The translations under genes and the position numbers were made by a program. This document shows, one piece after another, positions 17,009-31,367 of a stretch of 64,000 bases of DNA; within the stretch, counting starts at the first letter, position 1, and each line of letters begins with the position of its first letter. Below the pieces are notes generated by a model. The model made no database searches. It had not been told where the DNA came from and worked only from the letters and a program-made list of their open reading frames with translations. Origin of the DNA: Candidatus Hydrogenedentota bacterium (GTDB lineage Bacteria; Hydrogenedentota; Hydrogenedentia; Hydrogenedentales; SLHB01). The DNA is taken from the NCBI GenBank assembly GCA_045863295.1, contig BTWA01000011.1, forward strand, positions 64,001-128,000, written 5' to 3'.

Positions 17009-17241
17009 CTGGGTTCCCTCCTGAATCCTTTGGATTCCATTCCCCAAAATACCAATTACAGCCCGCAGCAGCTTCGATGGATCGAGCCCGTGATCCCAAT
17101 TGGATTGGAGTATACAATCCAAACATGCATCTAACAAGTTAACAACGGAGCCGGGCCAGAGGGGCAGCCGGGTCCCGGCTCGTTGTAGGCGGTGGACGCG
17201 GGTGGTACGATTCGGTTGCCGGGCAAGGAGAGCGGCGTTCG

Positions 17242-18399
17242 ATGAAACTTTTGTGTCTGTGCAGTGCGCTGGATATCGGCAAGCACTATGGGTGTACGCC
17301 GGCTTGGTGGCAATTTCTGAAGGGCATGTACGAACTGGGGCATGATGTAATAGCGATTCCGTATGCGGGAGCGGCATTCGAGTCGCCGTATTGGCGCGGG
17401 TATGCGAATCCGTGCGCCGTGGAGGGCCAGGCCTTCGCGACGGTGAAGAAGTGGTTTGGCGGGGGGGCGACTTCGGTGGAGGAAGGGGCCGGCGCGAAGG
17501 TCACCAAGGCCATGATCGAGGGTTGGGTCAAGCCGCGCTGGGAGAATCATCTGACGACGATTTTGGCGCGGGAAAAGAACGTCGATGCGGTGATCGTGTT
17601 CAACGTGCCGGCGAATCACTTTACGGGAATTCCGGGGCGGTTGCGTGCACGCTATGGCGTGCCTTTTTTTTATTATGACGGCGATGTGCCTGCGAGCCTG
17701 CCTCGATTCGGCGGGTTTTCGACGGGATTCAAGATCTATGAAGGGACAAATCTGGCCGAATACGACGGGTTTATGTGCAATTCCGAGGGCGGCGCGGAGG
17801 AATTGGCGGAGATGGGGGCGGTGCGGGTCAAGGCGGTGCATTGGGGCGTCGATCCTGAGTTGTACGCACGATTGCCTGTCGAGGAGGAGCGGGACGTTTT
17901 CTTTTACGGCATCGGCATGCAGTTTCGCGAAGACTGGATCCACGCCATGCTGACTCAGGCCAGCGAATCACTTGCGGACAAGTCGTTCTGCCTGGGCGGG
18001 ACGGGTTTTCCGGAAACCCTGGGCAAGGTCGTGCAAATTGGGAACGTGCCTTTCAATCAATTTCGATACGAATCCTGTCGCAGCCGCTTGAACCTGAATA
18101 TTGTGCGCGGGGCGCATGCTTCTGTCCTCGCCTCTTCCACGTCGCGGCCTTTCGAATTGTCGGCGATGTCGTGTTGCGTGATTACGAGTCCGTACGAGGG
18201 GGTTGAACGCTGGTTCGACATTGGCAACGAAATGATCATGGTCAACACACCTGACGAGGTGGTGGACGTGTATAGGTGCTTGCTGAACGACAACGCCGAA
18301 CGCCGCCGCATCGCCGAGGCCGCGCGGAAGCGTGTGATTGCGCAGCACACCCACCGTCACCGGGCTGAAGAAATCACGGCGTTTGTAATGGGCTTCTGA
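17242..18399 (+). CDS. Glycosyltransferase, CgeB/Glyco_trans_1_2-like GT-B
   Basis: SRLNLNI..SRPFELSAM..IAEAARKRVIAQHTHRHRA C-terminal pattern; AAGGAG RBS. Confidence 0.8.
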   Translation: MKLLCLCSALDIGKHYGCTPAWWQFLKGMYELGHDVIAIPYAGAAFESPYWRGYANPCAVEGQAFATVKKWFGGGATSVEEGAGAKVTKAMIEGWVKPRWENHLTTILAREKNVDAVIVFNVPANHFTGIPGRLRARYGVPFFYYDGDVPASLPRFGGFSTGFKIYEGTNLAEYDGFMCNSEGGAEELAEMGAVRVKAVHWGVDPELYARLPVEEERDVFFYGIGMQFREDWIHAMLTQASESLADKSFCLGGTGFPETLGKVVQIGNVPFNQFRYESCRSRLNLNIVRGAHASVLASSTSRPFELSAMSCCVITSPYEGVERWFDIGNEMIMVNTPDEVVDVYRCLLNDNAERRRIAEAARKRVIAQHTHRHRAEEITAFVMGF

Positions 18400-18471
18400 A
18401 CTCTGTGTTGGCCGGTGTCCTTACCGCGTCCAAAAGTCTCCTCTCCGCCCCACACCACCCGGCGTCTCCTC

Positions 18472-18518
18472 TTGACAAGGGGATTGGCCCGCGCTAATAT
18501 TCATCCTAAAGGGTGAAT
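18472..18518 (+). promoter_or_regulatory. Sigma70 promoter with overlapping ArsR-type operator
   Basis: TTGACA-17-TAATAT, then the imperfect palindrome ATTCATCC-TAAA-GGGTGAAT running into the start codon. Confidence 0.75.
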
Positions 18519-18879
18519 GTCTGTGGTTGTACAACTGGATGACACACTGAAGGCGTTGGCGGATCCGACGCGGCGGGCCATTTTGCAGCGGCTTTCGCAA
18601 GGCGAGGCGCGCGTGACGGAGGTTGCGCGGCCGTTTCCCATTTCGCTGAACTCGGTTTCCAAACACATCCGCATCCTGGAACGGGCGCATCTCGTGCGGC
18701 GGCGGCGCGAAGGCCGCGATCATTTCTTGTCGCTCGATCCGGCGCCGCTGGACGAGGCCGCACAGTGGATTGCCGCGCAACGGGCGTTGTGGACGCGGCG
18801 GCTGGATGCCTTGGAAGCGTTGCTGAACGCCGAAGACCGCGAGGCAGAGTTGCGAAAGGGAGCACGGCGTGGACGTTAG
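18517..18879 (+). CDS. ArsR/SmtB family transcriptional regulator
   Basis: ALADPTRRAIL, SKHIRILERAHLV winged HTH. Confidence 0.92.
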   Translation: MSVVVQLDDTLKALADPTRRAILQRLSQGEARVTEVARPFPISLNSVSKHIRILERAHLVRRRREGRDHFLSLDPAPLDEAAQWIAAQRALWTRRLDALEALLNAEDREAELRKGARRGR

Positions 18880-18957
18880 GGGTGTATCCGATGGCATAGC
18901 GCACCTGTTCTTGTGTGAGGCGTAAAACTGTTTCTTACAATCCGGAGTGAATCTCTC

Positions 18958-19392
18958 ATGAGCCTTGAGCCCATCACGATTATTGTGCGGCGTCGCTTCA
19001 CGCAGTCCGCCGAACGCGTGTTCGATGCGTGGCTCGATCCCGCGAAGGCAAGGCAGTTTCTATTTGCGACGGAAACCGGAGTTATGGTGTGCGCGGAGAT
19101 TGATGCGCGTGTGGGCGGGTCTTTCACCTTTACGGATCGGCGCAACGGTAACGACGTGGCACATTTCGGCCACTACTTTGAAATTGATCGGCCACGGCGG
19201 CTGGTGTTTTCCGTGTGCGTGCCGGAATACTCCCATGAATACGATCGCGTGACCATTGAGATAGAAGCGCTCGACTCCGGATGCGAACTCACCCTCACCC
19301 ACGAGATGCGTCCAGAATGGAAAGATATGATCGAAGGCGTCACCGCGGGCTGGACGGGGATCCTGGAAGGGTTGGCGAAGGCGATTGCGTAG
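18958..19392 (+). CDS. SRPBCC/AHSA1 domain protein
   Basis: ERVFDAWLDP, DARVGG, RPRRLVF, GWTGIL; classic ArsR partner. Confidence 0.9.
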   Translation: MSLEPITIIVRRRFTQSAERVFDAWLDPAKARQFLFATETGVMVCAEIDARVGGSFTFTDRRNGNDVAHFGHYFEIDRPRRLVFSVCVPEYSHEYDRVTIEIEALDSGCELTLTHEMRPEWKDMIEGVTAGWTGILEGLAKAIA

Positions 19393-19428
19393 TTGTCCCT
19401 GTGCCACCTTATAGTTCGCGACAGCGGA

Positions 19429-20025
19429 TTAGGAGGTGCGGCCAAGGCCCGGCCACGCCTGCATAGCCATGGCCGCGATGCGTTGCAGGTCCCTCCGGCT
19501 TGTGCCGCTGGTGGCTTGGACAGCGATGCCGTGGATAACGGTTTGGACGAATTTGGCGAGATCGGCCGCGGGGGTATCCGGCGGCAATTCGCCTTCCTTT
19601 TTGGCCTTGTCATAACGGCGGCGTAGCATGGTTTCCAATTCCTTGCGCTGGGTCTCTACTGCCGCGCGCAGTTCCGGCGAGGCGTCTTCGCAAGTCATTA
19701 GTCCCCTTACCACGAGGCATCCCTGCGGATTTCCGCGCGCGGAAATGGCCTCCGTGATTTCGCGCAATAGCCGTTCGGTGGCGGCACGGGCCGTGGGTTC
19801 TTCCATAGCCTCTTTCGCGAAGCCGCTGGGACCTTTGGCGTACCGATCCAGGGCCTTCATGAACAAGGCTTCCTTGTTCCCGAAGGCGGCGTAGAGGCTG
19901 GGACGGTTGATGCCCATGGCTTTTTGGAGATCGGCCAAGGTGGTGGCTTCAAAGCCTTTGCTCCAGAAGACGAGCAGGGCCTGATCGAGGGCCTTGTCGA
20001 TGTCGAATCCCCTTGGGCGGCCCAT
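19429..20025 (-). CDS. TetR/AcrR family regulator (ComR/NemR-like)
   Basis: MGRPRGFD, FWSKGFEATT, GINRPSLYAAFGNKEALF, GCL. Confidence 0.93.
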   Translation of the reverse strand: MGRPRGFDIDKALDQALLVFWSKGFEATTLADLQKAMGINRPSLYAAFGNKEALFMKALDRYAKGPSGFAKEAMEEPTARAATERLLREITEAISARGNPQGCLVVRGLMTCEDASPELRAAVETQRKELETMLRRRYDKAKKEGELPPDTPAADLAKFVQTVIHGIAVQATSGTSRRDLQRIAAMAMQAWPGLGRTS

Positions 20026-20047
20026 GGGAATAGAATCCTCCTCAGTT

Positions 20048-20122
20048 TTGTCCTGATCGGTACAATACGATTTTGGCGTGGGAATTCCAAGCCTGAACGA
20101 TTTTGTACTCTTCGGTATAAAA
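20048..20122. promoter_or_regulatory. Two imperfect palindromic TetR operator candidates in the divergent intergenic region
   Basis: TTGTCCTGATCGGTACAA (20048-65) and TTTTGTACTCTTCGGTATAAAA (20101-22); shared consensus TTGTACn6GTACAA. Confidence 0.7.
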
Positions 20123-20143
20123 AACACGAAAAAGGAGGCTTTT

Positions 20144-20896
20144 ATGCCTGGCAAGTTGGATGGCAAGGTGGCGGTGGTGACGGGGGCTTCCAAAGGCATT
20201 GGCGCGGAAATCGCCAAGCAGTTGGCGGCGGACGGCGCGGCCGTGGTGGTGAATTATGCTTCGAGCAAGGAAGGGGCCGATCGTGTGGTGGCGGCGATTA
20301 CGCAGGCAGGTGGCAAGGCCGTTGCGGTGCAAGCCAACGTGGCCAAGAGCGATGACATTGCGCGGTTGTTCAAGGAAGCCAAGAATGCTTTTGGCCAGAT
20401 CGATATCCTGGTGAACAATGCGGGCGTTTACGAATTTTCACCGTTGGAGGCAATCACAGAAGACCATTTTCGCCGGCAGTTCGATCTCAATGTGCTGGGC
20501 CTGATCCTCGCCACGAAGGAGGCGGCGAGCCATTTCAATGGCGACGGCGGATCGGTCATCAACATCAGTTCGGTAGTGACGAGTCTGGCGCCGCCGAACA
20601 CCACGGTGTACAGCGCCACCAAGGGCGCGGTGGACGTGATTACCAAAGTGCTGGCACGGGAGTTGGGGCCCCGCAAGATTCGCGTGAATGCCATCAACCC
20701 CGGCATGGTGGAAACGGAAGGTGCGCACGCACAGGGCCTTGCCGAAGGTGAGTGGCGCAAGCAAATCGAGTCCACCACGCCCCTCGGGCGCATCGGCATG
20801 CCGGCGGACATCGCCCCGGCGGTGGCATTCTTGGCTTCGTCCGACGCGGCATGGCTCACGGGCGAGGTTATCAACATTAGTGGCGGTCTGAAATAA
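20144..20896 (+). CDS. SDR oxidoreductase (FabG/glucose dehydrogenase-like)
   Basis: TGASKGIG, NNAG, YSATK; AGGAGG RBS. Confidence 0.93.
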   Translation: MPGKLDGKVAVVTGASKGIGAEIAKQLAADGAAVVVNYASSKEGADRVVAAITQAGGKAVAVQANVAKSDDIARLFKEAKNAFGQIDILVNNAGVYEFSPLEAITEDHFRRQFDLNVLGLILATKEAASHFNGDGGSVINISSVVTSLAPPNTTVYSATKGAVDVITKVLARELGPRKIRVNAINPGMVETEGAHAQGLAEGEWRKQIESTTPLGRIGMPADIAPAVAFLASSDAAWLTGEVINISGGLK

Positions 20897-20979
20897 AAGC
20901 GCTATACTGTCTCCACGGGCGGACGCGAATAGGATCGCGTCCGCCCGTGTTGTATCTGCCATCAAACAAGGAGCCCCCC

Positions 20980-21942
20980 ATGAGCAAGTCCAAGGCAGGA
21001 AGCCCCGGCGTCGAACATACCACCCAATCGTTTCTGGAGGCCTTGGCGGCCGGCGGCGGGCCCCCGATGGAAACAATGGAACCGGCGGATGCCCGCAAGG
21101 TGTTGGAGGGCGCACAGGAAGGTACGACACCACCTGCTTGCGATGTGACGGAGAAGACCATTCAGGTGGACGGTGACGACGTTACATTGACGGTGGTGCG
21201 TCCGAAGGGCGCTTCCGGCATGCTTCCCGCGTTCATGTTCTTTCATGGCGGCGGCTGGGTCATTGGCGACTATCCGACGCACCAGCGGTTCATCCACGAT
21301 TTGGTGACATACTCCGGTTGCGTGGCGGTGTATGTGGATTACGCGCGGTCGCCGGAGGCGCGGTTCCCCATGGCACTGAACCAGTGCTACGGCGCGACGA
21401 AGTGGGTGGCGGCAAACGGCGCGGCGATCCAGGTGGACGGATCGAAGCTGGCGGTGGCGGGCAACAGCGCGGGCGGCAATCTGGCGGCGGCCACGGCGCT
21501 GAAGGCCAAGGCCGAAGGCGGCCCCAAGCTCGCGTTTCAACTGCTCTTTTGGCCGGTGACGGATGCGAATTTCGAAACGGAATCGTACAACCAGTTCGCC
21601 GAAGGTCATTTTCTCACGAAGAAGATGATGATCTGGTTCTGGGATCATTACTTGCCTGACAAGGCCGCGCGCAAAGACATCTACGCCGCGCCGCTGCAAG
21701 CGTTGCCCGACCAATTGAAGGGTCTCCCTCCCACGCTGATTCAGACCGCGCAGATGGACGTGCTGCGCGATGAAGGCAATGCCTATGGCGTGAAGCTGGA
21801 TGAGGCCGGCGTCGAAGTAACCATCGCGCAGTACAATGGATTGATCCACGACTACGGCCTTTTAAATGGCCTGAGCGAAATTCCGGCCGTGCAGGCGGCT
21901 TTGCGCCAAGGCGCGGCGGAATTGGCGCGGCATTTGAAGTAA
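20980..21942 (+). CDS. Alpha/beta hydrolase, HSL-family esterase/lipase
   Basis: HGGGW oxyanion hole, GNSAG, DVLRDEG, HDY. Confidence 0.92.
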   Translation: MSKSKAGSPGVEHTTQSFLEALAAGGGPPMETMEPADARKVLEGAQEGTTPPACDVTEKTIQVDGDDVTLTVVRPKGASGMLPAFMFFHGGGWVIGDYPTHQRFIHDLVTYSGCVAVYVDYARSPEARFPMALNQCYGATKWVAANGAAIQVDGSKLAVAGNSAGGNLAAATALKAKAEGGPKLAFQLLFWPVTDANFETESYNQFAEGHFLTKKMMIWFWDHYLPDKAARKDIYAAPLQALPDQLKGLPPTLIQTAQMDVLRDEGNAYGVKLDEAGVEVTIAQYNGLIHDYGLLNGLSEIPAVQAALRQGAAELARHLK

Positions 21943-22156
21943 GCGGAACCACGTTGTAAGCGCTTGCGCATGACCTGCTTGCGCAATCCTACATTTTGGA
22001 AACCCCTCGTTTGAATCCGGGGGGTTTCCATTTCCCTTCATGCAAAATGCAACAAAGCGGACCCAATAGAAGAAACTGCTGTCCTCATCACTCAAATAGA
22101 CAGTAGTCATTCCGTAATTGCGTCGTGCCCCTTCTGCACCGCGCGGCATTTTCTTC

Positions 22157-22186
22157 TTGACATCGCCTACATCTGTAGGCTATAAG
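22157..22186 (+). promoter_or_regulatory. Sigma70 promoter with BlaI/MecI/CopY operator
   Basis: TTGACA-18-TATAAG; palindrome GCCTACA-TC-TGTAGGC (22165-80) containing TACAnnTGTA. Confidence 0.88.
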
Positions 22187-22218
22187 AAACACAAGTAAGC
22201 ACTACGGGAATCCGCATC

Positions 22219-22629
22219 ATGGCGCGCAAGAAATCTTCCAAACCCATCCCCCGGGTGTCCGAGGCCGAGTGGGACATCTTAAAACCCCTGTGGGACGATG
22301 GCCCCCTGGCTGCGCGGGACATCATTGCACGGCTGGACGGCAAGCGGGACTGGGCAGCGAAAACCGTCAAGACGATGTTGGCACGCCTTGTGGAAAAGGG
22401 CGTGATCGAATACGACCAGATTGGCAATTCCTATTTGTATCGCACGGTGTATACGCGCGACGAGATGACACGGGCCGCAATGGGATCATTCCTCGATCGC
22501 GTGTTTGACGGGGCGATGCGCCCCTTCCTGGCGCATTTCGCCGAGCATGTGTCCGACGATGAACTGAGACTCCTGCGGGCTGAACTCAAGCGAATCGAAC
22601 GGGTGAAGCAGGAGGATTCGGAGGGGTAA
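22219..22629 (+). CDS. BlaI/MecI/CopY family repressor
   Basis: SEAEWDIL..LW, WAAKTVKTMLARLVEKG, FLDRVFDG. Confidence 0.95.
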   Translation: MARKKSSKPIPRVSEAEWDILKPLWDDGPLAARDIIARLDGKRDWAAKTVKTMLARLVEKGVIEYDQIGNSYLYRTVYTRDEMTRAAMGSFLDRVFDGAMRPFLAHFAEHVSDDELRLLRAELKRIERVKQEDSEG

Positions 22630-22631
22630 CC

Positions 22632-25235
22632 ATGGGTGCGTGGTGGATGCCGGCCTCGACCCTGTGGGCGGACTGGATGATCCAGATGGCCTGGCAGGTG
22701 GCGGTGTTGGCCGTGGCGGTGCTGTTGATTTCGCGGTTCGCGCCGCGATCGAGTGCGGCCTTTCGTTACGCCCTTTGGGCGCTCGTCTTCATCAAGCTGA
22801 TCATTCCGCCGGGTATAGCCGCGCCGTGGTCGTTGGGCACGGCCGCCAATCATCTGGCCGAGACAACCCTGCCGACGTACACCGCGGAAGAACCGTTGCG
22901 CATCGCGGACTGGGAACTGAGGCCCGCGCCTGAAACACCGCAGATCGCCAGCGTCGAATCGGTCGAGCAGCACCCTATCACACCCCAATCGGTCCGGTGG
23001 TCGATTGCGTCCATCGCGTTCACGGTATGGGGCGCTGTCGCCTTGATGATGTTTGCATCGCTGTGCGTGCAATACGTGCGCTACCGTCGGCGCATCCTGC
23101 GATACGGAACACCGGTGTCCCAACCGGTGATGGCTGTGGTGTCCGACTGCAAATCCATCCTGGGGGTGCGGCGCGCGGTGCGCGTATTTGAAAGCGAGAC
23201 CGTATCGACGCCGTATGTCTTCGGGGTCTTCTCCCCCATCATTCTTTTGCCGCGAGGCACGGAAGGTAAGTATGGCGCCGCGCATCTTCGAAACATTCTG
23301 CTGCACGAACTAAGCCACATACGCCGGCACGACATTCCCATGAACTGGGGCATGGCGGTGCTGGTCTGCCTGTACTGGTTTCACCCGGCGGTCTGGCTGG
23401 CGTACCGGTACATCGGGAGGGAACGGGAAATGGCTTGCGACGATTTGGTGCTTCAACACACACAAGACAACGCGAAGACCTACGCGGAAACGATCGTGGA
23501 GGTGGCGTCGGAATACCGCAAACCGGCGGTGGCGGCGGTGGGCTTCGTAGGCCTGTTGGAACTGGCGGATAACATGCTCGCCCGAGTGCGGTCGGTGGGC
23601 GATGCCACGCGCACACGGCGGGCGGGCTGGCGCGCGGCGCTGTTCGTGGGTTTTGTGACCGTGCTCATTATGCCCATGGCGGTGTGGACACCGACGGCCT
23701 TTTCGGCCGACACGCCGCCGGATATAGACCCGGTGATGGAGTCGGCTGAGCGGGAAATTTCCGCGCACTATGCGAAGGCCGATCCAGAAGTGCAGGAGTA
23801 CATTCGTTGGACGGCGAAGACCTTTGGGCGCAACGGGCTTTGGCTGCCTGCGGAATACTTTGATGAGATGAGCGGTGTCGAGCGTGCGGAGAAGGTGGAT
23901 TACCTTGCGCGCGCGCTTGACGGCGAGTACGGCCGGCATCTGTGCGACGCCTTGAACCAGGCGGGCGTGCTGGCGGATCCAAAATTGCTGCCCGGTGTGC
24001 TCAAGGCGGCCACGTATCACCGCGACGATGCCGACTACGATTGCCGGCCCAAGTGGATGGCTGTGGCGGCGGTGGGCCGCATAGGCCAGATTTCCGCCGT
24101 GCCTGATCTGGTGCCGCTGGTGGACCATGGTAACCAGAACACGCGCATGTGGGCGCGGGCTTCGCTCGCGCGGTTGACGGGCGAGTATTTCGGCGAGGAC
24201 AAGAAGGCGTGGGCGGATTGGTGGAATGCGTCGCACGACCCCAAGATCAGCGAAGACGCCATTAAACCGTGGCAGCCTCCGGCGGTCGTGGAACCGGCTA
24301 AGGCCGAAGCGCCGTCTCCGAAGCAATCGGCCGCAGAGGTGACGATTACACTTACGGTCGATCCATCCACCACCGATAGTCCGGTGCGGATCCAGATTGG
24401 TGAACTCGCGGTGCCTGATGTGCGGTCGCTCGCGGACGAAATTGCGAAAGTCCGAGAAAAGGGCGACGGAATGGTAATCATCCGGGCCGATCGCGAGGTG
24501 CCCGTTGAAACGGTGACCGAAGTGATGGATGCGTTGAAGGCCGCGGGGGTTTCCAACGTCAGCATTGCAACCGCGGTGACGAACGCGTCCCCTGAAATTG
24601 TATCGGTTGTTCCGGCGATTGGCGCGACGGAAGTGGATCCTGCGACGACTGAGATCCGCGTCACGTTTGACCAAGACATGGCGAAGGGATATTCGTGGAC
24701 CGGCGGCGGCGATGCCTATCCCAACGCGCACGGAAAGCCATCGTGGGTCGACGCGAGAACATGCGTGTTGTCAGTACAACTGGAGTCCGGCAAGTACTAT
24801 CGCGTAGGCATCAATTCTAAGAGTCACAAAGGCTTTCAAGGGATCAACGGCGTGCCCGCGCGCAACCGGGTGATCTATTTTGTTACCGCGGGCGCGAGCG
24901 AAGACGTGAAGGCCATGGCCGCGGCGCCTCAGGTGATAACGATGGTGCCCGCCTGTGGGGCAACGGATGTGCCAGCGGCGACAACGACCTTAGTAGTGAC
25001 CTTTGACCGGCCCATGGGGGGCGGCTTTTCCTGGGTTCGGCTGGATGGCGTGCAGCCGGAGTTTCAAGGGCAACCCACATGGAATGAAGACCGGACGGTG
25101 GCGACGGCGCCGGTGTCACTGAAGCCTGGCGTCACTTATACTCTCGGATTGAATTCGCCACACGTCATTAATTTCCAAAGCGCCGCCGGGGTGCCGCTGG
25201 AGCCGGTGGTGTGGTCATTTACGACCGCAAAGTGA
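22632..25235 (+). CDS. BlaR1-type M56 sensor peptidase fused to HEAT repeat, ExbD/TolR domain and two Ig-like domains
   Basis: RYALW, HELSHIRRHD, WFHP, EREMACD; IIRADREVP..VMDALKAAGV; two P-x-P..GAT.V....TFD..M repeats. Confidence 0.88.
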   Translation: MGAWWMPASTLWADWMIQMAWQVAVLAVAVLLISRFAPRSSAAFRYALWALVFIKLIIPPGIAAPWSLGTAANHLAETTLPTYTAEEPLRIADWELRPAPETPQIASVESVEQHPITPQSVRWSIASIAFTVWGAVALMMFASLCVQYVRYRRRILRYGTPVSQPVMAVVSDCKSILGVRRAVRVFESETVSTPYVFGVFSPIILLPRGTEGKYGAAHLRNILLHELSHIRRHDIPMNWGMAVLVCLYWFHPAVWLAYRYIGREREMACDDLVLQHTQDNAKTYAETIVEVASEYRKPAVAAVGFVGLLELADNMLARVRSVGDATRTRRAGWRAALFVGFVTVLIMPMAVWTPTAFSADTPPDIDPVMESAEREISAHYAKADPEVQEYIRWTAKTFGRNGLWLPAEYFDEMSGVERAEKVDYLARALDGEYGRHLCDALNQAGVLADPKLLPGVLKAATYHRDDADYDCRPKWMAVAAVGRIGQISAVPDLVPLVDHGNQNTRMWARASLARLTGEYFGEDKKAWADWWNASHDPKISEDAIKPWQPPAVVEPAKAEAPSPKQSAAEVTITLTVDPSTTDSPVRIQIGELAVPDVRSLADEIAKVREKGDGMVIIRADREVPVETVTEVMDALKAAGVSNVSIATAVTNASPEIVSVVPAIGATEVDPATTEIRVTFDQDMAKGYSWTGGGDAYPNAHGKPSWVDARTCVLSVQLESGKYYRVGINSKSHKGFQGINGVPARNRVIYFVTAGASEDVKAMAAAPQVITMVPACGATDVPAATTTLVVTFDRPMGGGFSWVRLDGVQPEFQGQPTWNEDRTVATAPVSLKPGVTYTLGLNSPHVINFQSAAGVPLEPVVWSFTTAK

Positions 25236-25251
25236 CGTATCGCTTTCATGT

Positions 25252-25289
25252 GCGGCCGGGGCCCTTGGGGTTCCGGCTGTTGTTTTTTT
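25252..25289 (+). terminator. Intrinsic terminator
   Basis: CGGCCGGGGCCC/GGGTTCCGGCTG stem followed by a T tract. Confidence 0.8.
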
Positions 25290-25354
25290 GCCGATTGCGC
25301 GGAGGCAATCCCTTGGCATGTGTGGTATGCTGCTGAAAAAGGGAAATCATTGCC

Positions 25355-26428
25355 ATGCGAAATCTGCTATTGGCGTTTTTCTTGATGCCGGCGGTCCTGT
25401 GGGCGGGTGCGGACGACTTCGCCCGTGTGAGGCGCGCGGTTTGCCAGGGCGTCTACTATCCGCCGACGCCGGAGGCGCTTTCAGCGGCGGTTCGTCAGTA
25501 TTTGAGCGAAGCCGAGGTTATCGATCTTCCGGGGCCGGTGGTGGGCTGCATTGTACCATTTGCAAGCTACCCGTACAGCGCGACGGTAGCGGCCCATGCG
25601 TTCAAGCCGCTTCAGAAGGGGCAGTACAAGCGGGTGATCGTGATTGCGCCTTCGATGTATGCGACGTATGACAATTGTTCCATACCGCTTGTGCGGTACT
25701 ACCAGACGCTGTTGGGAAATATCGAGTTGGACGGGCCGGCGGTGCGCGACCTGATCATGTCGGCTTATTTTGAAGAGCGGTCGGTGATTTACAATGCGTC
25801 GGTGTATCGCAGCGTGGAGACGCAACGCGTGGCGTTGCACGAGCGGGAGTGGGCGTCGGAGTCGATATTGCCCTTTTTGCAGGAGCAGTTGGGTACGTTC
25901 CATCTGGTTCCGATTGTAGTAGGCGATGTGTACAAAGACGGCGCTATCGACATGCGGCGCGTGGATGAGATAGCGCGCGAGTTGCGGACGATCATGGACG
26001 AATCGACGTTGGTCGTGGCTGCCTGCAATTTCACGCAGTACGGAGACATTTACAATTTCGCGCCTTTCCGTGAGAACATCAAGCAGAAGATCGGCGAATT
26101 GGACATGGCTGCGTTCGAATACGTCACGAACCGGAATCCGGCGGGATTTGTGTCGTATGTGGATCAATCCGACAACAATTTTCTTGGCCGCGCGGTGGTG
26201 GCCATTTTTTTGCGCGCGATATCGCCCAGCGCGCGCGGCGTGCTGCTAAGTTACAACACCTCGGCCAATGTATCCGGCAAGACGGATGCCTCGACGAGTT
26301 ATGCGGCATTCGCGTTCTTCGATCCTACGCGTCCGATGCCAGCGAAGCCGGCGGCGACCGCTTCCGGCACGAAGGTTGAGGAGACAGCCCAGGATGCCCC
26401 CTCGAACGATTCCGTTGGAGCGCAGTGA
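25355..26428 (+). CDS. MEMO1-family protein (AmmeMemoRadiSam protein B-like) with signal peptide and degenerate metal site
   Basis: VRRAVCQGVYYP, IVPFASYPYS, QTLLG, ESILPFLQ, VPIVVG, YNTSANVSG..SYAA. Confidence 0.82.
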   Translation: MRNLLLAFFLMPAVLWAGADDFARVRRAVCQGVYYPPTPEALSAAVRQYLSEAEVIDLPGPVVGCIVPFASYPYSATVAAHAFKPLQKGQYKRVIVIAPSMYATYDNCSIPLVRYYQTLLGNIELDGPAVRDLIMSAYFEERSVIYNASVYRSVETQRVALHEREWASESILPFLQEQLGTFHLVPIVVGDVYKDGAIDMRRVDEIARELRTIMDESTLVVAACNFTQYGDIYNFAPFRENIKQKIGELDMAAFEYVTNRNPAGFVSYVDQSDNNFLGRAVVAIFLRAISPSARGVLLSYNTSANVSGKTDASTSYAAFAFFDPTRPMPAKPAATASGTKVEETAQDAPSNDSVGAQ

Positions 26429-27011
26429 GGCGTTTCTCACTCCTTCCGAGCAAACGATGCTGTTGCACATCGCGCGTGACAGCATGACGGCCGCCGTCCG
26501 GGACGGGCGCCCGGTCGATCCGTTTTCCTATCCCCTTTCGCCAGCATTGCAGGAGAAGCACGGCGCGTTTGTGACGTTACGGCACGGCGGAGAATTGCGC
26601 GGCTGTATTGGTTCCGTGGCACATCAAAAGGCGATTGCGGTGTCGGTCAGTGAAAACGCGGTGAACTCGGCGACGCGTGATCCCCGGTTTGCTCCTGTCC
26701 GGAACGAAGAGATTGAGCATATTCGCATTGAGATTTCGGCGTTGACGTTTGGGGATACACCGGAAACGCCATTCAAACGCGTGCAGGATATTGGGGAGAT
26801 AGTGATAGGCCGGGACGGGTTGTTCGTGGAGTGTCCGCCGCGACGGGGCGGGTTATTGTTGCCTCAAGTGGCCGTTGAGCGCGGCTGGGATGTGGCGACG
26901 TTTTTGTGCAATGTTTGCCGCAAGGCGGGTTATCCGGACAATGCATGGCAACGGCCTGACGCGAGGCTGTTCCGATTTTCGGCACAGGTGTTCGGCGAAG
27001 AACCGGATTGA
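26394..27011 (+). CDS. AMMECR1-domain protein (AmmeMemoRadiSam protein A)
   Basis: GAFVTL, LRGCIG, DPRF, GRDGL, LLLPQV, CRKAG; GAGGAG 10 nt before ATG 26394. Confidence 0.9.
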   Translation: MPPRTIPLERSEAFLTPSEQTMLLHIARDSMTAAVRDGRPVDPFSYPLSPALQEKHGAFVTLRHGGELRGCIGSVAHQKAIAVSVSENAVNSATRDPRFAPVRNEEIEHIRIEISALTFGDTPETPFKRVQDIGEIVIGRDGLFVECPPRRGGLLLPQVAVERGWDVATFLCNVCRKAGYPDNAWQRPDARLFRFSAQVFGEEPD

Positions 27012-27033
27012 CTTCATAGGGAGGTGTTTGTTC

Positions 27034-27690
27034 ATGGCGGGATGGCGCGCGACGGCCTTCGTTGTTGTTTGTCTATCCGTCAGCGCGAATGCATACGCGA
27101 AGGTGGCGAAGGTCCAATTAGATCGGTTGGCGGCCGACGCCGATGTGATCGTCATCGCGACAGTTACGGGTATTGAGCGCGGCATCGGAGGGCGGATTGC
27201 CGAAGCGACGGTGGAAACCGTGGTGAAAGGAGATGCGGAAATCGCCACCGTACATTATGTTGCTTCGCCCACGTGGGTATGCGATACGAGCGATGCGGTG
27301 AAAGGCGAACGTGTTTTGTTGTTCCTGAATGACATCAAGAAGGAAGAGCCGGAGTGGTTCAGGCCGGTCACGCGCCTGAAGGCTCGGGCCCGCCAATTGA
27401 CGCATTTCTACGAGATAGGTTGGCATGGACAAGGGCGGCTTGTGATTGATTCGAGCCAGAGTGCCGTAGAGCAGGCCGAATCGCATTTCGATGTGGATTT
27501 TGCCGCCTATCTGAAAGACCGGATTGGGCAGGACGTGCACGATATACTTGCGTCCGTCTTAGGGGTGTTGGAGGCGATTGACCGCGATGGCATCGAGGGT
27601 CGTGCTTCCTTAATGGAGGGCGGAGAACCGACGCGTATTAACGCGCATGAATCGGGTGTGCCATCGGGCGACGCCGGAGGCGGAGAATGA
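27034..27690 (+). CDS. Hypothetical exported protein
   Basis: GGAGG RBS, signal peptide ending AYA, ADVIVIATV..GERVLLFL beta-rich pattern; ATGA overlap with next gene. Confidence 0.7.
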   Translation: MAGWRATAFVVVCLSVSANAYAKVAKVQLDRLAADADVIVIATVTGIERGIGGRIAEATVETVVKGDAEIATVHYVASPTWVCDTSDAVKGERVLLFLNDIKKEEPEWFRPVTRLKARARQLTHFYEIGWHGQGRLVIDSSQSAVEQAESHFDVDFAAYLKDRIGQDVHDILASVLGVLEAIDRDGIEGRASLMEGGEPTRINAHESGVPSGDAGGGE

Positions 27691-28931
27691 CACCACTGTT
27701 CGCGGTATCCCTTGCCCTTAACTTTCTTGCAGCGCCCGAACCGGTTGTGCTTGCTACTGACGTGCCCGTTGGTTTCCCGCGCGCCTCGCAGGTGCGAGCG
27801 ATTACGGAGGAGCCGAAGCACCATTTTTTTGGGTACTACGGGATTTTTCCCTGGAGCGCGAGCGGGCGTTACATGGTGTATCTGGAAACGACGTTTAGCG
27901 ACCGGTTGGTGGAAGAGGTTGACCGGGCCGGGATTGTGCTGCATGACGTGCAATCCGGCGAGCGCAAGACTATAGCCGAAACGGGGGCGTGGAATTTTCA
28001 GCAGGGGGCGTTGGCTCACTGGATCGGGAATACCGACCGCATCGTGTACAACGATCGTGTGGACGGCGTTGTGGTGTCGGTGGTGCTTGATGTGGGTACC
28101 GGGCGCAAGCGAACGTTGCCGCGTCCGATTGCGGCGGTGTCCCCGGACGGGCGCACGGCGGCCTCGATAAATTATGCGCGGTTACGCGTGACGCGGCCTG
28201 ACTATGGGTATGCGGGCGAGGGCAATGCGTATGCCGGTGAGGTTGCGCCCGCGGATGACGGCCTTTGGATATTCGATTTGGAGACCGGCGAATCGAAGAT
28301 GGTGGTTTCATTGAAGCAGGTGTTTGATTTTGCCACGCCGGAACGGCAGAGCAGTGAGGACTTGTTCTGGTTCAATCACATTTTGTTCAGCCGTGACGGG
28401 GAACGGATCTTTTTTCTGGGGCGTACCCGGCATCAGTTGGGGCCGTTGAAGACCGCGGCGTTTACCGTAGGGTTGGATGGCGGCGAATTGCGCTGTCTGT
28501 TTCCTTACGCGTGGGGAGCTTCGCATTTCGACTGGATTGACGGGAAGCGCATCATGGCGACCACGCGCTATCAAGGGGAGTCTCCTTGGCGGCATGTGCT
28601 TGTGACCGATGGGAGCGCAGACTACACGGTGATAGCGCCGGATTTGCTTTCGGCTGATGGCCATGGTCATTTTTCGCCGGATGGGCGGTGGATGGTAACG
28701 GATTCGTATCCGGATAAGGAACGCTATCAACATTTGTACCTTGTGCGGATGGAAGACAATACGGGAGTTGAAATTGCGAAGTTTCAGGAGCCTGTCGAGT
28801 ACAAGGGCTTCTGGCGTTGCGATCTGCACCCGCGCTGGAGCCGTGATGGGAAGCGGCTGTGCATCGACTCGACGCACTCGGGCACGCGGCAGGTTTACGT
28901 CGTCGAATTGGATTGGCCTACGAGCCCATGA
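27687..28931 (+). CDS. Exported TolB-like/oligogalacturonate-lyase-like beta-propeller protein
   Basis: HHFFGYY, AWNFQQG, GHFSPDGRWMVTDSYP, RCDLHPRWSRDG. Confidence 0.8.
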   Translation: MTPLFAVSLALNFLAAPEPVVLATDVPVGFPRASQVRAITEEPKHHFFGYYGIFPWSASGRYMVYLETTFSDRLVEEVDRAGIVLHDVQSGERKTIAETGAWNFQQGALAHWIGNTDRIVYNDRVDGVVVSVVLDVGTGRKRTLPRPIAAVSPDGRTAASINYARLRVTRPDYGYAGEGNAYAGEVAPADDGLWIFDLETGESKMVVSLKQVFDFATPERQSSEDLFWFNHILFSRDGERIFFLGRTRHQLGPLKTAAFTVGLDGGELRCLFPYAWGASHFDWIDGKRIMATTRYQGESPWRHVLVTDGSADYTVIAPDLLSADGHGHFSPDGRWMVTDSYPDKERYQHLYLVRMEDNTGVEIAKFQEPVEYKGFWRCDLHPRWSRDGKRLCIDSTHSGTRQVYVVELDWPTSP

Positions 28932-29274: not shown

Positions 29275-29451
29275 AGGATTCCTTCCCTCGCGGCCAGCGT
29301 GGCGGCGGCGTCTATTGTAGGCGTGGGTTGCTTCGGGGGCAAGCCTTGACAGGATATTCGCCCGGGGCATAGGCTTATGGGATTCGGGGGGGACTGCTCA
29401 CGAGTACGTGGGCTGGCGGCTTTCTGGATTTCGACACGACCCGGACACAGC

Positions 29452-30573
29452 ATGACATTGCTTACCGATCACCATACGGCGCGAGCGGATTCGGATTTGG
29501 ATTACCAGAACCGGATTCTGGTGGATGTTTCGCGCACGTTTGCGTTGACGATTCCTCAATTGCCAGGCCGTTTGCGGACCGTGGTGGGCAATGCGTATCT
29601 GCTTTGCCGTTTGGCGGATACGATAGAGGATTCTGAGGTGTTGACGCTGGCAGAAAAGCGTCATTTCTACGATTTATTTGGCGCTGTGCTGAGTGGCCGG
29701 TGCGCGGCGGAGTCGTTTGCGGCCGACCTTGCGCCTTGCCTTGGGGGATCGGTGATTCCGGGCGAAGTGGATCTCGTGCGAAACACTCCGCGTGTGATTC
29801 ACGTATTTCAGACGTTCACGGAGGCGGAACAAGGGGCGCTGCAACGATGCGTGCGGATTATGGCGGAAGGCATGGAGGCGTTCCAGAAGGGCCGTTATTC
29901 GGACGGGCTGCCCAATCTTGCGTATCTCGACGCGTATTGTTATCACGTAGCGGGCGTTGTGGGCGAGATGTTGACGGAGCTATTTTGCGCGTATTCGCCC
30001 GCCATTGCGGAGCGCCGCGAGGCGCTGATGCAACGGGCGGTTTCCTTTGGGCAAGGGCTTCAGATGACCAATATTCTGAAGGACATTCACGAGGACAAGC
30101 AGCGCGAAATGTGTTGGCTTCCGAAGGACGTATTTCAAAACGAAGGTTTTGAGTTGTGCGATCTTTCGAATGGTCCGGGCGACAAGCGGTTTCACAAGGG
30201 GCTGCGGATGTTGGCGGGGATGGCCCATGGCCATCTGGAAAATGCGCTGGACTACACGCTTTTGATTCCGAACAACGAGACCGGCATACGGAAGTTTTGC
30301 ATATGGGCGATCAGTATGGCGGTGTTGACGCTTCGCAGGATACATGGGAATCCTGCATACCGTTCCGGCGCGGAGGTCAAGATTACCCGTAACAGCGTGC
30401 GGGTGACGATGTTGACGACGACGATGATCGTGCGCAGCGATCCACTTCTTCGCCTTGGGATGAAGGTTTCCTCGCTGGGTCTGCCGAAAATCCGTGTGGA
30501 GGCGCAATTGGGCGATTCGGTGCGTCATCCAGGCCCGGCGGCTACGCCGGATAGGGTTCATCCCCTGCCATGA
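29452..30573 (+). CDS. Squalene/phytoene synthase family protein (single-enzyme SQS-like)
   Basis: VSRTFAL, YLLCRLADTIED, YCYHVAGVVG, GLQMTNILKDIHED. Confidence 0.9.
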   Translation: MTLLTDHHTARADSDLDYQNRILVDVSRTFALTIPQLPGRLRTVVGNAYLLCRLADTIEDSEVLTLAEKRHFYDLFGAVLSGRCAAESFAADLAPCLGGSVIPGEVDLVRNTPRVIHVFQTFTEAEQGALQRCVRIMAEGMEAFQKGRYSDGLPNLAYLDAYCYHVAGVVGEMLTELFCAYSPAIAERREALMQRAVSFGQGLQMTNILKDIHEDKQREMCWLPKDVFQNEGFELCDLSNGPGDKRFHKGLRMLAGMAHGHLENALDYTLLIPNNETGIRKFCIWAISMAVLTLRRIHGNPAYRSGAEVKITRNSVRVTMLTTTMIVRSDPLLRLGMKVSSLGLPKIRVEAQLGDSVRHPGPAATPDRVHPLP

Positions 30574-31367
30574 GCGCGGTTCGAGAGCGCTATGTTTCAG
30601 AGATTTTCCAGTATGAGCGGGAAGGCTACGCCATTTTCAGGAACGTGCTCGACGCGGGACTCATTGCGGAGGCGCGGCGGCACAACGACTGGTTGTTGGA
30701 GCGCAATCCCGGTGTGCGGCCGGAACAGTCGCATCATTATTTAATGACGCGCGACCCATTTTGGGTACGTTTGGTGAGCGACGAGCGGCTGCTGGACATC
30801 GCCGAGTTGTTTGTGGGGCCGAATCTGGCGTTGTTTGGTTCGCATTATATCAGCAAGCGGCCACGGGACGGTCAGGCGGTTTTGTGGCATCAAGACGGTT
30901 CGTACTGGCCGCTGGAGCCGATGGAGGTGGTCTCGCTTTGGCTGGCCGTGGATGCGTCCACGCCGGAGAACGGGTGCATGCGCGTGATACCTGGCACGCA
31001 GCAGGTGGCGCTGCAGTCGCTACATGAGCGCAAGGACGTGGACAACGTGTTGGGATCGGGGATGGACGAACGGCTGGTGGATGAATCCAAGGCCGTCGAC
31101 CTCGTACTTAAGCCCGGTGATGTGTCGGTACATCATCCAAATGTCATTCACGGTTCCAATGCGAATCTTTCCACCAAGTGGCGGCGCAGCCTTACGATTC
31201 GATACATTCCGACCACGACCCGGATATTGCTGAAGAAGGGCGAGGGGATTCACCCGAGCGCTTTCCACTTGCGTGGCGAGGACCCGGGGTTGAACGAATA
31301 CAATCCTCGACCGGACTATGTGCCGGGGGCGTGCATGCCATTTGAAGGCTGCGACCGCTGGAAGTAG
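30570..31367 (+). CDS. Phytanoyl-CoA dioxygenase family Fe(II)/2OG oxygenase
   Basis: WHQD, ENGCMRVIPG, HGS..N..RR; ATGA overlap with the synthase. Confidence 0.9.
   Translation: MSAVRERYVSEIFQYEREGYAIFRNVLDAGLIAEARRHNDWLLERNPGVRPEQSHHYLMTRDPFWVRLVSDERLLDIAELFVGPNLALFGSHYISKRPRDGQAVLWHQDGSYWPLEPMEVVSLWLAVDASTPENGCMRVIPGTQQVALQSLHERKDVDNVLGSGMDERLVDESKAVDLVLKPGDVSVHHPNVIHGSNANLSTKWRRSLTIRYIPTTTRILLKKGEGIHPSAFHLRGEDPGLNEYNPRPDYVPGACMPFEGCDRWK

Follow-up and report, generated by a model that had tools for sequence, protein, structure and literature searches.

A Predicted Exported Memo Paralog with a Substituted Metal Site Encoded beside AMMECR1 in a Candidatus Hydrogenedentota Genome

Introduction

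Conservation of Memo and AMMECR1 extends from archaea to humans, and the two have been associated with the motility of cancer cells and with a human contiguous-gene syndrome. To our knowledge, neither protein has a known biochemical function. The system formed by Memo, AMMECR1 and a radical SAM enzyme, together with inactive members of the superfamily, was reportedly described by Burroughs et al. in the Journal of Biological Chemistry in 2019. The present analysis concerned a gene for a Memo homolog, hereafter MEMOx, and the AMMECR1 gene that overlaps its 3' end in a stretch of 64,000 nucleotides from a Candidatus Hydrogenedentota bacterium (GenBank assembly GCA_045863295.1, contig BTWA01000011.1, positions 64,001 to 128,000 of the forward strand). 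This whole stretch is called the window and all coordinates refer to it. The genome assembly comprises 6.3 Mb in 88 contigs and is 96% complete.

The closest described system is the three-gene AmmeMemoRadiSam system (TIGR04335, TIGR04336 and TIGR04337). The window resembles it in that a protein A gene adjoins a protein B gene but differs in that the cluster is without a radical SAM enzyme. Memo and AMMECR1 are listed as uncharacterised in PMC6393860. According to PMC11081632, Memo is debated as a metal protein, the Fe/Cu ligands of human MEMO1 are H49, H81 and C244, and its iron binding was abolished by H49A or C244S but not by D189N or H192A. The same paper describes the metal-site positions of MEMO1 as homologous to those of class III (LigB-type) extradiol dioxygenases and states that not even MEMO1 is known to have dioxygenase activity. 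MEMOx shares the superfamily fold of these dioxygenases (DesB 3WR8, LigAB 1BOU and aminophenol dioxygenase 3VSH) with Foldseek expect values (E) of 1e-7 to 1e-4 and a template modelling (TM) score of about 0.45, but it is distant from them (8-17% identity) and does not have their 2-His-1-carboxylate site.

Results and Discussion

Fold and Metal Site of MEMOx

The findings slightly favour a reading of MEMOx as a Sec-exported, metal-free periplasmic Memo paralog that would act as a binding protein and would owe its place beside AMMECR1 to an old gene fission. The gene is an open reading frame (ORF) of 357 amino acids at 25355..26428 on the forward strand, with no internal stop in the window ORF list, and its Memo domain (residues 26-321; 25430..26317, forward strand) was delimited by profile matches, alignments and the predicted structure. 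MEMOx scored 108.6 bits against Pfam Memo PF01875 (cut-off 27) and 132.2 bits against TIGR04336, the AmmeMemoRadiSam system protein B model (cut-off 26). The narrower equivalog NF001987 was not reached, with 84.2 bits vs. a cut-off of 295. The AlphaFold2 model had a predicted local distance difference test score (pLDDT) of 88 and a predicted TM score (pTM) of 0.84, and its top Foldseek matches were the MEMO1 structures 7kq8, 7l5c and 3bcz with an E of 1e-24 and TM scores of 0.85-0.87 normalised to the target (0.85 for the best match, 7kq8). The original prediction of a MEMO homolog with an otherwise intact fold and no stops or frameshifts was thus borne out.

MEMOx resembles the AmmeB/Memo family (TIGR04336, PF01875; MEMO1 7KQ8 and 3BCZ) in passing both models, in its predicted fold, in the scaffold motifs kept and in having an AMMECR1 gene as neighbour, and its relative P0004 is labelled 'AmmeMemoRadiSam system protein B' by one source. 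It differs from the family in its predicted signal peptide, in the absence of a radical SAM gene at the locus and in the replacement of six site residues, namely the three metal ligands and their three neighbours. It also differs in score from the canonical AmmeB of the same genome, which gave 241.9 bits vs. 131.8 bits for MEMOx.

The metal site was mapped by alignment to the MEMO1 chains 7kq8 and 3bcz and by a family alignment with canonical paralogs; the latter was used for the EHS motif, which the pairwise phmmer alignment misplaces owing to an insertion. At the crystallographic metal ligands, H49, H81 and C244 of MEMO1 are replaced by F69 (codon 25559-25561), M101 (25655-25657) and L277 (26183-26185) of MEMOx. 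At the neighbouring site residues, H131, D189 and H192 are replaced by W166 (25850-25852), N225 (26027-26029) and Q228 (26036-26038), all on the forward strand. The motifs read PFASY, APSMY, EREWAS and ACNFTQYG, and NNFLGR stands in place of the xxxCG motif. All motif substitutions listed beforehand were therefore found, the change of EHS to EWA being backed by the family alignment and the C244 region adding a further one. Contig pieces from the sludge metagenomes of three other studies (X2, X3 and X4) showed 0 differing letters to the window stretch and jointly span all six substituted codons in identical form, which indicates that the substitutions are not an assembly error.

H162 and E165 were conserved in 68 of the 69 aligned MEMOx-clade sequences, and E165 in 74/76 of all aligned sequences. 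The equivalents of both residues also occur in canonical members with an intact His/His/Cys (HHC) triad in the family alignment, so they are not new compensating ligands. With all six site positions occupied by non-ligand residues, the proposal of an apparently metal-dead site stood, and MEMOx is predicted from its residues, at the same slight preference as the whole reading, to bind metal no longer at the His/His/Cys site of the family. The residues invariant in the MEMOx clade are H162, E165, Q176, T227 and D250. A Cu(I) site of Met and aromatic residues (M101, W166 and F69) was also considered, but with a single Met only it was left as a mere remark.

Phylogeny and History of Ligand Loss

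A scan of the phylum covered 135 genomes, of which 124 had a match; 150 matches were listed and 102 more lay beyond them. Among the matches listed, at least 98 were of MEMOx type (≥150 bits). In 65 of these 98, AMMECR1 followed immediately in the same orientation; it was absent from that position in 32 and fused in 1. Among the 52 lower-scoring matches listed, 42 were Memo-AMMECR1 fusions of 508-610 amino acids, which adjoin a high-scoring radical SAM gene (370-413 bits; e.g., contig C17 of genome G091). Orthologs of the canonical Memo on contig C33 of the window genome were present in most genomes of the phylum (41-65% identical, about 275-290 amino acids), and in two basal families this C33-type Memo lies directly upstream of its own AMMECR1 gene (G001, contig C36; G002, contig C46). 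The nearest non-self proteins of MEMOx in a protein search had 41-44% identity, and one of them is assigned by its source to Candidatus Hydrogenedentes. A search of 1.84 billion representative proteins produced 4599 matches with E ≤0.001 and 167 with E ≤1e-30, the nearest non-self match being 43% identical.

In a tree of 88 Memo domains, MEMOx was monophyletic with a support of 97 in the Shimodaira-Hasegawa-like approximate likelihood ratio test (SH-aLRT) and was sister to the fused forms (95), with the C33-type set apart. The metal triad (equivalents of H49, H81 and C244) was intact in 21 of 65 MEMOx sequences, in 8/8 fused and in 14/14 C33-type proteins, and accordingly 44 of the 65 sampled MEMOx had lost at least one triad ligand. 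More than 20 different triads were found among these 65 sequences, and the tree requires at least 7 changes of triad state, all within MEMOx, of which well-supported branches enforce 4. Among the 150 best of the 1.84 billion representatives, HHC was present in 42/79 short and 67/71 long (fused) proteins, and other fully ligand-less triads among the global representatives were NTE, NNS, TNN, TSR, SSP, FNN, NYE and WMP.

The window protein belongs to a subclade of 17 members, the others of which carry H-[LM]-x-[DE]-R-[ST] or T-T-Y-D-Q-R at the six site positions. This pattern indicates that H81, H192 and C244 were lost before the window lineage lost H49, H131 and D189. Canonical close orthologs had been named beforehand as the sign of a recent decay, and this was found only in part: H81, H192 and C244 are already missing from the nearest relatives (39-48% identity), whereas a canonical site is seen in deeper MEMOx lineages. 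Ligands were thus lost long ago, in steps and repeatedly within a clade that spans the phylum, with no recent decay. In some other MEMOx lineages (L028, L030, L031, L047-L052 and L075), H49 was lost and C244 was replaced by Asp, with H81, H131 and H192 kept, giving the residue sets N-H-H-N-[YH]-D and P-H-x-S-H-D. Instead of having lost metal binding, such x-H-D lineages could have exchanged the triad for a 2-His-1-carboxylate site.

The exported Memo-AMMECR1 fusions of the same phylum, as the sister group, are like MEMOx in having N-terminal signal, lipoprotein-like or anchor segments, and their AMMECR1 domains are related to the gene beside MEMOx. They differ in keeping the His/His/Cys triad and in having a radical SAM gene alongside, whereas MEMOx is unfused, has often lost the triad and has an AMMECR1 neighbour with no export signal. 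In the window genome, neither a Memo-AMMECR1 fusion nor a cluster of a fusion with a radical SAM gene was found, and no paper on exported Memo-AMMECR1 fusions beside radical SAM was found in the literature searched. A conserved small ORF of 64-69 amino acids was observed in 4/8 loci of relatives (L092 1214-1420, forward; L069 2036-2245, reverse; L093 1222-1416, forward; L073 135-332, forward), in three of them between the radical SAM gene and the fusion and in the fourth upstream. It has a twin-arginine-type signal (RRHFL or RRGFL), an Ala/Leu-rich core and a C-terminal YPG...PG.W.G pattern.

Selection on MEMOx

Nei-Gojobori ratios of nonsynonymous to synonymous substitution rates (dN/dS) were 0.04-0.16 in 15 MEMOx pairs (13 of them with degenerate triads), with saturation in one additional pair. 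The AMMECR1 genes of the same genomes gave 0.07-0.16. These ratios cover the relatives; for the window lineage, whose nearest relatives share no more than 48-49% identity, a count of conserved positions was used instead. Of 54 positions with at least 85% conservation across the 41 remaining aligned orthologs, the window protein keeps 50 (93%, compared with a clade median of 94% and a minimum of 82%). Within-species variants were not found, the other metagenomes carrying the identical sequence. The proposal that the gene is maintained and not decaying was upheld by the conserved positions and by the low dN/dS of its ligand-poor relatives.

A gene that has become functionless and drifts in this genus, with its frame intact by chance of time, is an unlikely explanation. 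The window protein is the most degenerate member seen (FMWNQL at the six positions), and besides the missing close relative its terminal branch in the Memo tree is long (0.82 vs. a median of 0.44, about 1.9×), both of which would fit drift. However, 357 codons are without a stop or frameshift, the conserved positions fall within the range of the relatives, the fold is predicted confidently and other fully ligand-less lineages persist. In addition, other genes of this genome are also on longer branches, namely AMMECR1 (0.42 vs. a median of 0.30) and the C33 Memo (0.48).

The same evidence bears on the possibility that MEMOx is still an enzyme, one that would act in the periplasm on the canonical Memo substrate class with a remodelled metal-free or shifted site (H162, E165, E169, T227 and D250). 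Purifying selection as strong as that on AMMECR1, the near-universal H162 and E165 and the invariant H, E, Q, T and D would suit such an enzyme, and since some lineages have x-H-D or H-H-D, a possible 2-His-1-carboxylate site, the clade is not uniformly inactive. This explanation was considered doubtful, as H162 and E165 are shared with canonical HHC members and offer no compensating novelty, the variety of more than 20 triads points to a released constraint rather than to a new catalytic set, and none of the six site positions of the window protein holds a ligand residue.

Predicted Export Signal

In the N-terminus of MEMOx, MRNLLLAFFLMPAVLWAGA|DD, a positively charged n-region and a hydrophobic core are followed by A-G-A as cleavage motif. 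The putative signal peptide comprises residues 1-19, MRNLLLAFFLMPAVLWAGA (25355..25411, forward strand), with predicted cleavage after A-G-A. The upstream start is preceded by a Shine-Dalgarno-like AAGGGA (25339..25344, forward strand) 11-16 nucleotides 5' of the ATG at 25355 as read from the sequence, and no such motif was seen ahead of the alternative in-frame ATG at 25385. A low-confidence helix was modelled by AlphaFold at residues 3-18. All 66 MEMOx-clade N-termini examined, a set that includes the window protein and the metagenome relative P0012, carry a short hydrophobic segment before the Memo domain. Their n-region was net positive in 64/66, a small-x-small end was present in 59/66 and the median uncharged stretch was 19.5 amino acids. 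KD10 hydrophobicity was 2.0-3.9 in the MEMOx clade vs. -0.62 in the signal-less canonical C33 Memo. Among the 150 best global representatives, a hydrophobic N-terminal segment was found in 64/79 short and 56/71 long proteins; in 10 short and 6 long ones the Memo domain is preceded by fewer than 10 residues, and these are possibly truncated. The fused relatives carry longer anchors or lipoprotein-like signals, several with a lipobox-like L-x-[GA]-C. Overall, MEMOx is predicted to carry a classical Sec signal peptide, in agreement with the signal-peptide-like N-terminus proposed earlier.

It is improbable that MEMOx is not exported, i.e., that the N-terminal helix anchors the protein or goes untranslated and that MEMOx is a non-catalytic subunit on the cytoplasmic face bound to the adjacent AMMECR1. 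The tight and often overlapping gene pair would be explained by such a subunit, the arginines (RVRR) after the hydrophobic segment blur the positive-inside rule and the radical SAM gene beside fused relatives has no export signal in the two loci read. However, the RVRR arginines are the conserved start of the Memo domain and occur also in the signal-less paralog, and the hydrophobic stretches are short (the median of 19.5 amino acids includes the c-region) with A-x-A-type ends in 59/66. Moreover, lipobox-like signals place the fused relatives that carry them outside the cytoplasm, and the Shine-Dalgarno motif supports the upstream start.

Relation to AMMECR1 and the Other System Genes

The AMMECR1 gene (AmmeMemoRadiSam protein A) encodes 205 amino acids from the ATG at 26394 (26394..27011, forward strand) and scored 165.4 bits against PF01871 and 159.6 bits against TIGR04335 (cut-off 99). 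Its longest ORF is 26268..27011 on the forward strand, in the +1 frame relative to MEMOx, so that the overlap is 161 nucleotides by the longest ORF and 35 nucleotides by the ATG at 26394. A Shine-Dalgarno GAGGAG was read at 26378..26383 (forward strand), 10 nucleotides 5' of this ATG. Both the ribosome-binding site and the start of AMMECR1 lie in the region of the C-terminal tail of MEMOx, which is disordered at residues 336-357 (26360..26428 with the stop codon, forward strand; pLDDT <50). The protein keeps LRGCIG, DPRF and all 25/25 columns that are invariant among 43 orthologs. No signal peptide was resembled by any of the 49 AMMECR1 upstream frames (0/49), in 48 of which the maximum KD10 was ≤1.34; one solo gene reached 2.07 and had no signal-peptide features. 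An intact AmmeA without a signal peptide, as proposed, was therefore recovered. A 'hitch-hiking' of AMMECR1 through the twin-arginine translocation (Tat) pathway was ruled out, since most MEMOx signal peptides have no twin arginine.

The doubly open zone of 161 nucleotides raised the option of a programmed +1 frameshift that rejoins MEMOx and AMMECR1 as an exported fusion. AMMECR1 stands in the +1 frame and overlaps the end of MEMOx in the window and in many close relatives, and fused homologs exist. However, the frame varies among the adjacent AMMECR1 loci of relatives (+1 in 27, +2 in 14 and 0 in 2), many relatives have a positive gap after the MEMOx stop and AMMECR1 has its own GAGGAG and ATG. 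In addition, no slippery motif was noticed, no search aimed at one having been made. On the varying frame relation and spacing this highly improbable fusion was rejected.

Three Memo genes were found in the genome: the canonical one on C33, the window MEMOx and one on C41. The C33 Memo scored 241.9 bits, has the motifs PHAGY, CSHRH, EHGLE, STDLSHY and MCG and is without a hydrophobic N-terminus. The C41 Memo (locus L003 1174-2400, genome G000) has 408 amino acids with an N-terminal extension of about 110 amino acids and an intact His/His/Cys site, and it adjoins a response-regulator/histidine-kinase gene. The window copy is the single AMMECR1 gene of the genome. The sole TIGR04337 match is a radical SAM gene on C53 (255.6 bits, cut-off 220) with a CDFHCGYCQN motif and unrelated neighbours. 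The reported lack of a radical SAM partner thus holds at the locus, where no system radical SAM gene was found near the MEMOx-AMMECR1 pair in the window, but not genome-wide, where the C53 gene, the canonical signal-less AmmeB on C33 and the third Memo on C41 are present. All parts of the classical system share one compartment, the cytoplasm. As judged here from their N-termini, MEMOx carries a conserved signal peptide and both AMMECR1 and the C53 radical SAM enzyme are without one.

In the AMMECR1 tree, the genes beside MEMOx grouped with the AMMECR1 domains of basal fused forms, and those beside the C33-type Memo in G001 and G002 formed their own branch (99), apart from the MEMOx neighbours. 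Taken with the Memo tree, this grouping is consistent with an exported fusion that was duplicated and split. On the predicted signals, a probable gene fission would have placed the two former domains in different compartments.

Absence of genes was scored at thresholds of E ≤1e-5 for AMMECR1 and E ≤1e-20 for the system radical SAM. MEMOx without AMMECR1, the system radical SAM and a C33-type ortholog was found in five genomes, G096 (92% complete), G111 (76%), G022 (95%), G060 (88%) and G073 (88%), and in G022 the only Memo match besides MEMOx was 28% identical. Conversely, AMMECR1, radical SAM and C33-type Memo without a MEMOx-type match were found in G099, G118, G119, G121, G125, G040, G042 and G033. 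In family f7, most members are without MEMOx and the trio genes alike. These patterns suggest that the cytoplasmic Memo and the radical SAM enzyme are the partners of AMMECR1, and that MEMOx is able to function independently of them. The 'repurposed system' of the original prediction is accordingly doubtful, as MEMOx and the trio each appear to occur without the other. A complex prediction for mature MEMOx and AMMECR1 with their own alignments (42 or 43 rows) gave a score of 0.00 and a mark of 0.32, which counts neither way.

Proposed Role of MEMOx

The idea of a maintained periplasmic pseudoenzyme is the best-supported reading. MEMOx and AMMECR1 would be co-transcribed, with AMMECR1 starting from its own ribosome-binding site in the MEMOx tail. 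Cleavage at AGA|DD would release a Memo domain of about 34 kDa into the periplasm, where the former metal pocket would be lined by F69, M101, W166, N225, Q228 and L277. MEMOx would then bind a small molecule or peptide in a non-redox role, in which H162, E165, Q176, T227 and D250 may take part. Its position upstream of AMMECR1 would be inherited, the halves of an exported fusion having split in the ancestor of the order. The signal-less AMMECR1 would stay in the cytoplasm and most likely serve the dispersed C33 Memo and C53 radical SAM enzyme, so that the two products probably act in different compartments.

Several points weigh against this reading. The role of a binding protein is drawn from the lost catalytic residues, and canonical bacterial Memo itself is not known to have a ligand, a partner or a phenotype. 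The invariant H162 and E165, together with E169, C224 and D231 near the pocket motifs, could form a new site, and M101 could in principle ligate Cu(I). The signal peptide was judged from its grammar and conservation. All trees came from quick maximum-likelihood searches with SH-aLRT as the sole support measure, and support is weak (54) at the deep nodes of the AMMECR1 tree. The absences were scored in incomplete metagenome-assembled genomes. In addition, AMMECR1 is directly downstream in 65/98 of the MEMOx loci listed, across distant families, an arrangement that usually signals a functional link. The use of conserved positions in place of dN/dS for the window lineage and its long terminal branch count on the same side.

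A different outcome of the fission is possible but was given clearly less credence than the reading of MEMOx as a binding protein left beside AMMECR1. Here, an exported enzyme would have been split, the AMMECR1 half would have moved compartment and replaced the ancestral cytoplasmic AMMECR1, and the Memo half would be a metal-free receptor or chaperone, perhaps for a product of the co-transcribed cytoplasmic pathway.

Roughly one hundred genomes have an exported, unfused Memo, repeatedly stripped of ligands and under strong purifying selection. Under the receptor or chaperone reading, the repeated triad loss would be a natural experiment pointing to a conserved metal-independent function of Memo, and it would bear on whether human MEMO1 is a redox enzyme or a binding scaffold. 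A conserved ligand-less Memo suggests that the Memo fold can do a metal-independent job, and the clade gives matched proteins of one fold with the metal site intact and lost for testing Memo binding and its metal need. The automatic label 'AmmeMemoRadiSam system protein B' would cover proteins unable to work like the canonical member. No description of an exported or ligand-less bacterial Memo was found in the literature searched; Burroughs et al. 2019, outside that search, may mention an inactive or secreted Memo.

Gene Neighbourhood and Occurrence

A terminator-like hairpin with a T-run was detected by a consensus scan at 25252..25290 on the forward strand, with a stem of 13 pairs (9 G-C) followed by TGTTTTTTTG. 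It sits 3' of the stop of the upstream BlaR1-like gene (25235) and suggests that MEMOx starts a new transcription unit. Downstream of AMMECR1, a gene for a 218-amino-acid protein with a signal-peptide-like N-terminus and no Pfam family (27034..27690, forward strand) starts 23 nucleotides after the AMMECR1 stop, and a gene for a 414-amino-acid PD40/TolB-like beta-propeller protein (27687..28931, forward strand; PD40 28.5 bits) overlaps it by 4 nucleotides. Both are lineage-specific. The window neighbours (BlaI/BlaR1-like, the two downstream exported proteins, squalene synthase-like and PhyH-like) were absent from the 1.5-kb flanks of 29/29 loci of relatives, and the two exported proteins, which had been suggested as partners, are therefore not supported as such.

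In the flanks of the relatives, a glycosyltransferase-like gene (PF13524) was located just upstream in 14/30 and a PNP-family phosphorylase was convergent downstream in 13/30. The window homolog of the glycosyltransferase-like gene was at 17209-18387, about 7 kb upstream of MEMOx, and owing to this distance the TetR/SDR/hydrolase/BlaI-BlaR1 block (18400-25350) and the two downstream genes look like lineage insertions. Within this block, 22219-25235 encodes a BlaI-type repressor followed by an 867-amino-acid BlaR1/M56 protein with an ExbD-like domain and two Big_5 Ig-like domains.

Sequence identical to window 25300-27100 was found in sludge or activated-sludge metagenomes (X2, X3 and X4) of at least 3 other studies, which indicates that the organism recurs in wastewater reactors. 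An RNA-labelled run (X20) had one identical contig of 169 nucleotides (26094-26262) with a word share of 0.09; DNA carry-over is possible and this was not taken as evidence of transcription. Finally, 29377-31367 of the window holds a squalene/phytoene synthase-like gene (191.6 bits) and a PhyH-type dioxygenase gene (118.8 bits) that overlap by 4 nucleotides.

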